In this document: positions 7,508 to 8,349 of the stretch, in pieces | Position numbering within the stretch: the stretch's first letter is position 1 | Layout: each line of letters starts with the position of its first letter | NCBI RefSeq assembly: GCF_050920415.1 | Contig: NZ_CP169309.1 | DNA: 64,000 bases | Strand: one strand, 5' to 3' | From: Escherichia coli | GTDB taxonomy: Bacteria > Pseudomonadota > Gammaproteobacteria > Enterobacterales > Enterobacteriaceae | The notes under the pieces: model-generated | What the model saw: the letters and a program-made list of their open reading frames with translations, nothing else | Database searches by the model: none | What the model was told of the DNA's origin: nothing | Position numbers and translations under genes: made by a program

Positions 7508-7702
7508 TTAATAGTTCTGCTGATTTTCTTCCATCTCTGCTTCTGCTGCCAGTGATTCAATTTTGTTTTCGAATATTGCTGACAGTGTTGCAAATTCAGC
7601 ATCAGTGACGGCGGGAATTGGAACAAACCTGATCCCGCTGTGTGCAAGCATGTTTGCAGTTTCAAGGCATTTTCTTAAATCTGCTGGTGATGCCCTGTTC
7701 AT
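7508..7702 (-). CDS. hypothetical small protein, translationally coupled to methyltransferase
   Basis: ATG at 7702 overlaps upstream stop (ATGA); 64 aa MNRASPADLRKCLETANMLAHSGIRF... Confidence 0.4.
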   Translation of the reverse strand: MNRASPADLRKCLETANMLAHSGIRFVPIPAVTDAEFATLSAIFENKIESLAAEAEMEENQQNY

Positions 7703-8349
7703 GCAGCACGCTCCCGCCCCTGGTTGTCTGTTGGTGACAGCGGAGAATTGCTGAATGCATTTGTTAATCCGCCAATATCCAACGCGTATCCAGGGTGTAG
7801 TTGCACTGCCGGGTCTTCGCACTGATTACCCCAAACATCGAAGCCATGAGACGACTGGCGGGCGAATAGTTCAATGCGAGAAACATCGCCTAACAATTGC
7901 ACAAGTTTTTCACGAACGACATCTGGTTTTCTTGAGTGCTCAAGCCGCGGTGCGGTAAATGACTGAACGATCCCTGCATTAATGCGCGGAGGTAGTTTTC
8001 CCTTTACCGCAAACAGGCAATCTTCACTATTGGCGCGAGTCATGTGTCCCATACCCATAACAAGTTTATCTGGTTGTCGACTACCACATTTTATCCACGT
8101 GAAGCCCTTCATCGTCATCAGACGGAATCCCCAGGCTTCAACAACTTTTAGTGCTTCGAGTGGTTGTGTTGGCACCCACCACATGGCCAACAGACAGTTT
8201 TCATCGGCCAAATCCCACACAGGAAGGCGGCAGATATCCAGCACACTCATAACCGGATATTTAAAACCGGCACCGCGATTACCATCTGCGGCTTTGTCCC
8301 GGTATACCCAGGGTGGATCTGCATAGATTAGTGTGTATTTCTTAGTCAT
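7699..8349 (-). CDS. MT-A70 family N6-adenine DNA methyltransferase (orphan)
   Basis: MTKKYTLIYADPPW... DPPW catalytic motif; no adjacent restriction enzyme. Confidence 0.8.
   Translation of the reverse strand: MTKKYTLIYADPPWVYRDKAADGNRGAGFKYPVMSVLDICRLPVWDLADENCLLAMWWVPTQPLEALKVVEAWGFRLMTMKGFTWIKCGSRQPDKLVMGMGHMTRANSEDCLFAVKGKLPPRINAGIVQSFTAPRLEHSRKPDVVREKLVQLLGDVSRIELFARQSSHGFDVWGNQCEDPAVQLHPGYALDIGGLTNAFSNSPLSPTDNQGRERAA

Follow-up and report, generated by a model that had tools for sequence, protein, structure and literature searches.

An orphan MT-A70 methyltransferase gene and a lambda orf63-like gene at a generic overlapping junction in a phiV10-like prophage of Escherichia coli

Results

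The methyltransferase and its small neighbour

The window, i.e. the whole stretch of 64,000 nucleotides of E. coli DNA that was analysed, contains a gene for an MT-A70 family N6-adenine methyltransferase that is directly followed by a small gene of the DUF1382 family, and both lie at the end of a prophage (Table 1). The methyltransferase begins with MTKKYTLIYADPPWVY according to the ORF translation. It matches the Pfam model MT-A70 over its full length (PF05063, positions 1-172 of 172, E 8.5e-22), so that an earlier, sequence-only reading of this DNA was right about the family and the DPPW motif. Further matches were obtained to phrog_359 (E 6e-120) and, as the only protein with a match in PADLOC, to the model MTase_II (E 6e-77), while the NCBIfam search returned no model for either the methyltransferase or the DUF1382 protein. 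A second MT-A70 paralogue is absent from the window. In an alignment of 14 methyltransferase relatives reaching down to 61% identity, about 60 core positions are invariant, as is DPPW (D11, P12, P13 and W14 taken singly are invariant or nearly so), and the C-terminal tail is variable. Only about 40 residues lie outside the MT-A70 core, and no extra target-recognition domain is recognisable in them.

Table 1. Genes and sequence features at the integrase end of the prophage (positions in the window)
Feature	Position	Strand	Remark
guaA	4484-6061		adjoins the prophage end marked by the integrase
P4-type tyrosine integrase	6254-7504	plus	ends 3 nt from the convergent DUF1382 gene; prophage end
DUF1382 / lambda Orf63-like CDS	7508-7702	minus	64 aa + stop; phiV10 gene p32
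Predicted early-left operon	7508-12306	minus	consensus scan and gene order
MT-A70 family N6-adenine methyltransferase CDS	7699-8349	minus	216 aa + stop; phiV10 gene p33
ATGA stop/start overlap	7699-7702	minus	methyltransferase TGA and DUF1382 ATG; tcat on the plus strand
GGGAG Shine-Dalgarno of the DUF1382 gene	7711-7715	minus	inside the 3' coding end of the methyltransferase gene; 8 nt to ATG
Codons of catalytic motif IV DPPW	8308-8319	minus	residues 11-14; reverse complement GAT CCA CCC TGG
PerC/ANR-like regulator gene	8342-8608	minus	8-nt overlap of its stop with the start of the methyltransferase gene; alternative GTG start at 8641
Candidate promoter of the early-left operon	12306-12278	minus	consensus scan; just past the repressor-gene terminator (12377-12358)

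Alignment of residues 3-172 to the sequences of solved MT-A70 structures (MTA1, E 3.6e-13; METTL3, E 4e-6) supports an MT-A70, i.e. permuted Rossmann, fold. The AlphaFold2 model calculated from the 14-sequence alignment is poor throughout (mean pLDDT 50.7), with low scores for the tail. The eukaryotic enzymes METTL3-METTL14 and the ciliate MTA1-MTA9 belong to the same Pfam family and share the DPPW motif with the phage methyltransferase; however, they function only as heteromers in which one subunit is a degenerate paralogue, whereas the phage protein is a minimal domain of 216 residues. A literature search for phiV10 in combination with methyltransferase gave no experiments on precisely this gene.

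The protein of 64 amino acids had been called unexplained in the sequence-only reading, but it turns out to be a homologue of a phage protein with published phenotypes. It covers the Pfam model DUF1382 completely (PF07131, positions 1-60 of 60, E 2.1e-30) and matches phrog_292 (E 4.8e-30), and judged by these two matches the ORF is a real gene. Residues 2-62 align to lambda Orf63 in PDB 8DSB (E 8.5e-13). In a separate comparison, the identity to lambda Orf63 is approximately 51% over 51 residues. Orf63 is pro-lytic in lambda and Phi24B (PMC10869804, PMC5575149). The NMR structure 8DSB shows a small intertwined obligate homodimer with a cleft that binds amphipathic helices, V27 and I29 are part of its core and the variant E36K unfolds (PMC10869804). 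In the 8DSB alignment and the numbering of PMC10869804, V27, I29, E36 and K47 are all identical in the protein from the window and L44 is replaced by F.

Lambda orf63, located in the exo-xis region, and the DUF1382 gene of the window have in common that they belong to the early-left operon, as predicted in the case of the window. They differ in their surroundings, since lambda orf63 is part of the conserved block orf60a-orf63-orf61-orf73-ea22, whereas the gene in the window lies between methyltransferase and integrase and has no orf60a or orf61 as neighbours. The position in the exo-xis block is a feature of the lambdoid context and not a requirement of the DUF1382 family.

Prophage context

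The region from 7400 to 8700 is 98.3% identical to phage phiV10 at the nucleotide level. In the phiV10 record (NC_007804), PhiV10p33 is annotated as DNA methyltransferase and PhiV10p32 as DUF1382 family protein, and the gene order is the same as in the window, from the integrase over the opposing DUF1382, methyltransferase, PerC-like, membrane ORF and AlpA genes to recET. The overlaps of 4 nt and 8 nt are alike in both and the pair of methyltransferase and DUF1382 genes is essentially unchanged. Differences concern the separate genes for the RecE-like protein and RecT in the window, which form one fused gene in the phiV10 record, and an ORF of 344 amino acids in the operon that is extra relative to phiV10. 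The gene pair is already known: as accessory genes, the two are part of a phiV10-like prophage that is common in E. coli, and their function is only partly resolved.

For the gene upstream of the methyltransferase, the assignment as a PerC-like regulator is based on phrog_868 (E 5.7e-62), and NCBIfam ANR is reached with E 3.4e-5, which is below the curated cut-off. PGAP names it PerC family regulator in a near-identical E. coli genome, and the phiV10 RefSeq record describes it as a transcriptional activator with Pfam PF06069 (PerC family).

According to consensus scans, which are the basis for both the transcription unit and the timing of its expression, all these genes would be transcribed as one early-left operon. 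Starting at the promoter end, it would comprise an ORF of 162 nt, the 344-aa ORF, an ORF of 100 amino acids and the genes for a RecE-like exonuclease and RecT, followed by the AlpA-like gene, a tiny membrane ORF and the PerC-like, methyltransferase and DUF1382 genes. The same scan found no terminator-like sites on the minus strand within the operon.

No restriction endonuclease is annotated by NCBI PGAP across the 39-kb prophage of a genome with 99.8% identity, in agreement with the earlier statement that the methyltransferase has no partner endonuclease. The sole nuclease in its vicinity is the RecE-like exonuclease, which is paired with RecT. A Type II restriction-modification system is recognised by a cognate endonuclease adjoining the methyltransferase; here, the adjoining genes are those of the PerC-like and the DUF1382 protein.

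The junction and its exchangeable downstream genes

The stop codon of the methyltransferase gene does overlap the ATG of the 64-aa ORF in ATGA, as the sequence-only reading had noticed, and together with the internal Shine-Dalgarno sequence this is the geometry of a coupled pair. However, ATGA is found at the methyltransferase stop in 77 of 79 IMG/VR loci, whatever gene comes next. This next gene encodes DUF1382 in 34 loci and a phosphatase of 219/220 amino acids in 26, while another 17 loci have one of about eight further ORF types; in the remaining two, nothing follows. The terminal string GGGAGCGTGCAGCATGA is kept in related loci despite the differing downstream genes. Within the operon of the window, ATGA additionally joins the AlpA-like gene to the tiny ORF and the RecE-like gene to recT. 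When the 3' end of the methyltransferase gene was checked for the unusual nucleotide-level conservation of a recombination linker, its last 30 nt had an identity of 0.82 compared to roughly 0.46-0.91 elsewhere and did not stand out. The ATGA overlap is one of the tight gene junctions that are generic in this operon and gives no evidence for a dedicated pair. Of the proposed translational coupling, the overlap and the Shine-Dalgarno sequence stand, but a specific partnership of methyltransferase and DUF1382 protein does not, since about ten unrelated genes are found downstream of this one type of junction.

The region was found in 544 of 5,426 complete E. coli genomes (approximately 10%), and the methyltransferase is conserved in about 590 viral loci. 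Among the 544 genomes with the methyltransferase, 370 have the order methyltransferase-DUF1382-integrase and 143 the order methyltransferase-phosphatase-integrase, the phosphatase being a NinI-like Ser/Thr phosphatase. The IMG/VR scan covers mostly near-identical loci, and the information on diversity comes from 20 loci with 80-90% identity, from look-ups of contigs and from annotated phage records. At 70-78% identity, relatives of the methyltransferase are encoded between NinB and NinD or alone past a lysis cassette, and no DUF1382 gene accompanies them. Conversely, DUF1382 genes without an MT-A70 neighbour occur in lambda, 933W and phages of Erwinia, Salmonella, Shigella and Pseudomonas, so each family is widespread without the other.

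Where the two families do adjoin, three layouts are seen, with DUF1382 downstream by ATGA, upstream by an overlap of 4 nt, or downstream by an overlap of 41 nt as in Stx2a phages. This might be more recurrent than expected for a purely random neighbour, and all 110 records of Stx2a-converting phages appear in the match lists of both the methyltransferase and DUF1382. For a paired alignment, there are only three distinct methyltransferase/DUF1382 pairs. The PerC-like gene lies upstream in nearly all loci whose methyltransferase is at least 95% identical and, where intact, overlaps its start.

Relation to the methyltransferase of Stx phages

Residues 1-187 of the methyltransferase are 83% identical (90% positives) to gp05 of the Stx phage ArgO145. 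This protein belongs to the M.EcoPA8orf6770P / M.EcoGV group of Stx2a phages (PhiPA8, ArgO145 and the O104:H4 Stx phage), whose members have DPPW in common with the enzyme of the window and are likewise orphans of temperate phages, encoded close to the integrase end and with a DUF1382 gene behind them. There are also clear differences. The C-terminal tail of M.EcoPA8orf6770P is unrelated, the alignment stopping at residue 187, and its upstream gene encodes PNB-2, in whose place the PerC-like gene is found in the window. The DUF1382 neighbour in Stx2a phages is a 53% identical paralogue, joined by the 41-nt overlap instead of ATGA, and the phage backbone is that of Sepvirinae, whereas the prophage in the window is a Uetakevirus. 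A tblastn search with PNB-2 against the window gave nothing better than E = 4, the PerC-like protein and PNB-2 do not align, and the approximately 27 C-terminal residues of the STEC type, which were proposed for PNB-2 binding, are absent.

In a table restricted to specificities determined by PacBio, M.EcoGV is listed with GATC (PMC6602927), and PMC10810198 cites GATC methylation in vivo upon overproduction. The GATC assignment taken from these two papers is second-hand, the original M.EcoGV data being those of Fang et al. 2012. The methylomes of the STEC strains that carry the close homologue of the enzyme in the window gave no additional motif attributable to this homologue (PMC6602927). The purified Stx-phage homologue alone showed almost no DNA methylation in vitro, even on dam- DNA, but the complex of M.EcoPA8orf6770P and PNB-2 prefers 16S rRNA and 30S subunits (PMC10810198), and therefore DNA with GATC may not be the physiological substrate. 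The homologue raises spontaneous prophage induction, and a mutant with APPA instead of DPPW failed to restore the linked virulence phenotype (PMC10810198). With 83% identity and a different C-terminal tail, the specificity of the enzyme in the window could differ from that of the homologue. The observed/expected ratio of GATC is 0.75 in the prophage and 0.67-0.74 in the host flanks, so there is no avoidance of GATC, which is consistent with, but not diagnostic of, GATC methylation.

Other orphan adenine methyltransferases on mobile elements of E. coli, silent in normal growth, are the non-specific M.EcoGI and M.EcoGII of prophages and M.EcoGIX of a plasmid. An identity with M.EcoGIX was rejected, as this enzyme is plasmid-borne, single-strand-specific and of a different family, and so was an identity with M.EcoGII, which has 349 amino acids with DPPY and also belongs to a different family.

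Discussion

We consider the chances slightly better than even that the two genes are independent accessory genes, namely a phiV10-lineage methyltransferase of the GATC type and an Orf63 homologue, which are connected by a generic junction with a swappable slot behind it. Both would then form the integrase-proximal end of the early-left operon, in a prophage of the phiV10/epsilon15 type (Uetakevirus) that is inserted beside guaA. The methyltransferase is probably the phiV10-lineage version of M.EcoGV/M.EcoPA8orf6770P, a stand-alone N6-adenine enzyme without a cognate endonuclease. Judging from the reports on the homologue, its most likely intrinsic activity would be the methylation of DNA at GATC, which would make it a second, phage-borne Dam. 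With the predicted timing, the enzyme would be produced once infection or induction switches on the early-left operon. The likely consequence would be that rapidly replicating phage DNA is kept fully methylated and that the frequency of induction is tuned, as the effect of the Stx-phage homologue suggests. The DUF1382 protein would act like Orf63, which in lambda and Phi24B shifts development toward lysis by binding to partners. ATGA together with the internal Shine-Dalgarno sequence would serve as the border between modules, and the slot that follows the methyltransferase is filled by interchangeable cargo such as DUF1382, the NinI-like phosphatase and others.

Some observations speak for a closer connection of the methyltransferase to one of its neighbours. 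MT-A70 enzymes are typically heteromers (PMC10810198; PMC7544214), and the core enzyme with 83% identity depends on PNB-2, the product of the gene directly upstream, for its specific activity and prefers 16S rRNA in 30S subunits (PMC10810198). Taken together with the near-constant PerC-like gene upstream of closely related methyltransferases, this would fit a 16S/30S rRNA adenine methyltransferase like the PhiPA8 holoenzyme, with the PerC-like or the DUF1382 protein as specificity subunit, which would raise induction by altering translation. However, the window lacks a PNB-2 homologue and the tail proposed to bind it is replaced, at least six different genes are found upstream in loci of 80-84% identity that share the tail type, and no neighbour is constant among the relatives that stand alone or in nin regions. 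The claim for 16S rRNA itself rests on SAM-consumption assays in which no site was mapped (PMC10810198), and we regard an rRNA holoenzyme as unlikely at this locus. Even more doubtful is the pairing implied by the sequence-only reading, in which the DUF1382 protein would serve the methyltransferase as a dedicated partner or regulator and the ATGA overlap would set their stoichiometry. The junction geometry, the three layouts and the co-occurrence in the 110 phage records could be explained in this way, the helix-binding cleft of Orf63 would offer a binding site for the variable tail of the methyltransferase, which scores low in the poor AlphaFold2 model, and the downstream gp4 was outside of what Gong et al. 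tested. In contrast, the phosphatase takes the place of DUF1382 behind an otherwise identical methyltransferase, tail included, in about a quarter to a third of the cases (26 of the 79 viral loci, 143 of the 544 genomes), in one locus the downstream gene is missing altogether, lambda, 933W and many other phages possess DUF1382 but no MT-A70 protein, and the phenotype of lambda Orf63 arises in a phage without this methyltransferase. Orf63/DUF1382 as a facultative adaptor, with the dimer cleft gripping the variable and possibly disordered methyltransferase tail and retargeting or activating the enzyme as PNB-2 does in PhiPA8, is a long shot as well. If true, it would account for the adjacency in three junction architectures and unite two pro-lytic modulators of Stx and lambdoid phages in one pathway.

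Other explanations concern the methyltransferase alone. Orphan phage methyltransferases with anti-restriction-type roles are common. Such roles are taken up in the discussion of PMC5778455. A classical anti-restriction enzyme, the main interpretation in the sequence-only reading, would modify DNA at a non-GATC motif of its own and shield the phage DNA in restricting hosts. The match to the Type II methyltransferase model of PADLOC and the position in the predicted early operon, from which the enzyme would be made before or during replication, are in line with such a function. On the other hand, GATC is the only specificity reported for a close homologue, the STEC methylomes revealed no additional motif (PMC6602927) and the few residues beyond the MT-A70 core hold no recognisable target-recognition domain, which makes anti-restriction rather improbable. 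The least credible is an inactive relic, e.g. of a decayed restriction-modification system, or a silent gene. It is true that the exact protein is known from its sequence alone and that the purified homologue by itself is nearly inactive in vitro. But the ORF is intact, the 14 relatives all agree in DPPW and in about 60 core positions, the gene is conserved in hundreds of genomes and viral loci, the homologue complements a phenotype in dependence on its active site, and no remnant of an endonuclease is annotated in the 99.8% identical prophage.

The sequence-only reading had proposed to compare the methylomes of the lysogen and a cured strain and would have taken the lack of a new methylated motif as a refutation. 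This test is unsound, since an active enzyme would likewise give no new motif, either because GATC is already methylated by the Dam of the host or because 16S rRNA is preferred in the presence of a partner. Probably no new motif is to be expected, and the gene cannot be assessed from methylomes that are compared in dam+ hosts.

As a sequence feature, the gene pair changes nothing, since it is annotated in phiV10 and named by PGAP in about 10% of the complete E. coli genomes. The distribution of the methyltransferase, however, is relevant for the view of Gong, Chakraborty and Koudelka (NAR 2024), who described the MT-A70 enzyme as apparently unique to Stx phages (PMC10810198). Its 83% identical core is present in non-Stx phiV10-like prophages, including those of ExPEC and APEC, and more distant relatives reside in nin regions. 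As PNB-2 is missing in these phiV10-like and nin settings, either the model of an rRNA holoenzyme or the idea that a partner is required calls for a test there. Apart from this, the position that follows the methyltransferase gene illustrates neatly how cargo is exchanged in nature while the ATGA junction is conserved.

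Results

The sequence-only reading had proposed an orphan MT-A70 adenine methyltransferase with a DPPW motif, and this was confirmed. The protein matches the whole of the Pfam MT-A70 model (1-172 of 172, E 8.5e-22), phrog_359 (E 6e-120) and a PADLOC Type II methyltransferase model match it too, and the profile match together with the DPPW motif places it in the MT-A70 family. The AlphaFold2 model is poor (pLDDT 50.7). As annotated by PGAP in a prophage of 99.8% identity, the approximately 39 kb between guaA and yfgI contain no restriction endonuclease; the sole nuclease is RecT's partner, the RecE-like PD-(D/E)XK exonuclease. 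This makes the methyltransferase an orphan, and the locus is not a restriction-modification system.

Features of the prophage region (window coordinates)
Feature	Position	Strand	Remarks
guaA	4484-6061		host gene flanking the prophage
P4-type integrase	6254-7504	+	
DUF1382 gene	7508-7702	-	64 aa; full DUF1382 model, E 2.1e-30; phrog_292
MT-A70 methyltransferase	7699-8349	-	216 aa; N-terminus MTKKYTLIYADPPWVY
GGGAG Shine-Dalgarno sequence	7711-7715	-	8 nt 5' of the DUF1382 ATG
DPPW motif	8308-8319	-	codons of methyltransferase residues 11-14
PerC/ANR-like small regulator	8342-8641	-	phrog_868 transcriptional activator; NCBIfam ANR below cut-off
RecT	9049-9930	-	gene separate from the RecE-like exonuclease
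RecE-like PD-(D/E)XK exonuclease	9927-10748	-	separate gene; ATGA overlap with RecT
344-aa ORF	11052-12086	-	phrog_1376, E 1e-121; in the predicted early-left operon, between RecE-like gene block and repressor
tRNA-Arg	21221-21297	-	anticodon TCT (rare AGA codon); near terminase/portal region
O-antigen acetylase	41976-43835	-	619 aa; phrog_6705, E 9e-179; seroconversion position

The small downstream protein, which had been called unexplained, is a homologue of lambda Orf63: besides the full DUF1382 match it aligns with PDB 8DSB (E 8.5e-13), the NMR structure of Orf63, and these matches assign it to the DUF1382/Orf63 family. All four Orf63 residues V27, I29, E36 and K47 (numbering as in PMC10869804) are kept in this alignment. 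Orf63 forms an obligate intertwined dimer with a cleft that binds helices (PMC10869804); orf63 is among the first genes transcribed, and its product shifts lambda and Phi24B to lytic over lysogenic development (PMC10869804, PMC5575149). Unlike in lambda, the gene lies outside the lambdoid exo-xis block.

The methyltransferase TGA (7701-7699) shares bases with the DUF1382 ATG (7702-7700; plus-strand tcat at 7699-7702), and both overlapping reading frames are real genes. ATGA also joins the AlpA-like gene to a tiny ORF and the RecE-like gene to recT in the same operon, and the PerC-like gene overlaps the start of the methyltransferase gene by 8 nt.

Positions 7400-8700 share 98.3% identity with the Uetakevirus phiV10 (NC_007804), and this stretch is present in 544 of the 5,426 complete genomes of E. 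coli. Its phiV10 counterparts are p34 (transcriptional activator, PerC family, Pfam PF06069), p33 (DNA methyltransferase) and p32 (DUF1382 family protein); the methyltransferase-DUF1382 pair is thus the already known, ordinary p33/p32 pair. The PerC/ANR-like gene is present in most loci whose methyltransferase is at least 95% identical. In EPEC and EHEC, virulence genes are under the control of PerC/Pch homologues.

From the promoter end, the minus-strand block encodes RecE-like exonuclease, RecT, AlpA-like protein, a tiny membrane ORF, PerC-like protein, methyltransferase and DUF1382 protein. A consensus scan gave a candidate promoter at 12306-12278 (minus strand), directly past the repressor-gene terminator, and no minus-strand terminator between it and 7508, which suggests that the pair lies at the end of an early-left operon of approximately 4.8 kb. 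The convergent integrase and DUF1382 genes have their stops at 7502-7504 and 7508-7510, 3 nt apart, and there is no terminator-like hairpin at this site (7502-7510). Early-left transcripts would run antisense into int, and such read-through could exert antisense control over integrase expression.

Discussion

The proposed translational coupling stands in so far as stop and start do overlap as ATGA, but the pairing is not specific, because the downstream gene varies behind the same junction. Relatives of the enzyme occur in 79 IMG/VR loci, and in 77 of them the methyltransferase gene ends in ATGA, preceded by GGGAGCGTGCAGC in the phiV10-type genes. The next gene encodes a DUF1382 protein in 34 of these loci, a NinI-like Ser/Thr phosphatase of 219 or 220 aa in 26 and some other ORF, of about eight types, in 17, with none in the remaining 2. 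Among complete E. coli genomes, the order methyltransferase-DUF1382-integrase occurs in 370 and methyltransferase-phosphatase-integrase in 143 (e.g. NZ_CP076264.1). The phosphatase takes the place of DUF1382 in roughly one in four phiV10-like prophages. Such an exchange is a clean natural cargo swap, and the ATGA coupling is generic rather than a sign of dedicated pairing. In locus L003, the 219-aa phosphatase gene (3648-4307) occupies the DUF1382 place at exactly the same junction.

The upstream neighbour likewise varies, in loci at 80-90% identity. In locus L072, an unrelated small SAM-methyltransferase-like ORF (2522-3004, 160 aa, DPPH motif) lies upstream of the MT-A70 gene, giving two methyltransferases in tandem. 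Relatives with 70-78% identity (L086-L098, of which L094-L098 are E. coli contigs) lie either in the NinB-NinD interval of lambdoid nin regions, where 4-nt overlaps occur once more, or alone behind a lysis cassette near ParB-methyltransferase genes; a DUF1382 gene is absent in both settings. These locations contradict the impression, given in the literature, of an enzyme found only in Stx phages. Conversely, lambda, 933W and phages of Erwinia, Salmonella, Shigella and Pseudomonas carry DUF1382 genes with no MT-A70 gene next to them. Since each family occurs without the other, neither depends on the other. The one point favouring a link is that the adjacency recurs in three layouts: DUF1382 3' of the methyltransferase via ATGA (phiV10 type), 5' of it with a 4-nt overlap (loci L063, L066, L067 and L077), and 3' of it in Stx2a phages, where the DUF1382 gene is a paralogue of 53% identity and the out-of-frame overlap spans 41 nt. 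Joint action of Orf63-like proteins and MT-A70 enzymes is a small residual question, and we consider it very improbable.

Concerning function, the closest studied relative is gp05 of Stx2a phages, 83% identical to the methyltransferase core (residues 1-187). This protein is the enzyme investigated under the name M.EcoPA8orf6770P, and it closely resembles M.EcoGV (PMC10810198). Purified alone, it has close to no activity on DNA; with PNB-2, the product of the directly upstream gene, it forms a 1:1 complex that favours 16S rRNA in 30S subunits, the modified base being unmapped (Gong et al., PMC10810198). Its gene increases spontaneous prophage induction, and a DPPW-to-APPA active-site mutant was unable to restore the linked virulence phenotype (PMC10810198). 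An rRNA-directed holoenzyme is the main rival explanation here. However, tblastn found no PNB-2 homologue in the window (no match better than E = 4), the PerC-like protein has no similarity to PNB-2, and the C-terminal tail, proposed by Gong et al. to contact PNB-2 (PMC10810198), is replaced by an unrelated one. Because it lacks both the partner gene and that tail, the enzyme, as judged from its sequence, falls outside the PNB-2 holoenzyme type that these authors defined, though it may still work in a like manner.

Among loci with this tail type, neither the upstream nor the downstream neighbour is constant. Together with the absent PNB-2 and the replaced tail, this leads us to favour an autonomous enzyme, the intrinsic activity of which would, by analogy, be GATC adenine methylation of DNA. 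M.EcoGV is listed with GATC specificity in a table restricted to PacBio-determined specificities (PMC6602927), and a passage of Gong et al. cites overproduced M.EcoGV as methylating GATC in vivo (PMC10810198). Such an enzyme would in effect be a second Dam delivered with the early genes, and an effect on prophage induction would be a plausible consequence of its activity. The prophage does not avoid GATC (observed/expected 0.75 vs 0.67-0.74 in the host flanks); this fits with GATC methylation without being diagnostic of it.

With GATC or RNA as target, comparing the DNA methylomes of lysogen and cured strain in a dam+ host would yield no new motif. The absence of a new methylated motif, which had been proposed as refutation, thus cannot serve to refute activity; STEC strains carrying the homologue also have methylomes without an additional motif attributable to it (PMC6602927).

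The prophage differs from phiV10 in other respects. The phiV10 RefSeq record has a single fused RecE-RecT CDS (PhiV10p37, 1761 nt) instead of two genes, reflecting a frameshift, a sequencing difference or a genuine fusion in one of the two records. The 344-aa ORF, for which PADLOC gave no match, is missing from phiV10, where this interval has just two small ORFs. Finally, Oac of phiV10 (338 aa) is far shorter than the O-antigen acetylase found here, so that this acyltransferase differs from Oac, and possibly the O-antigen modification does too.
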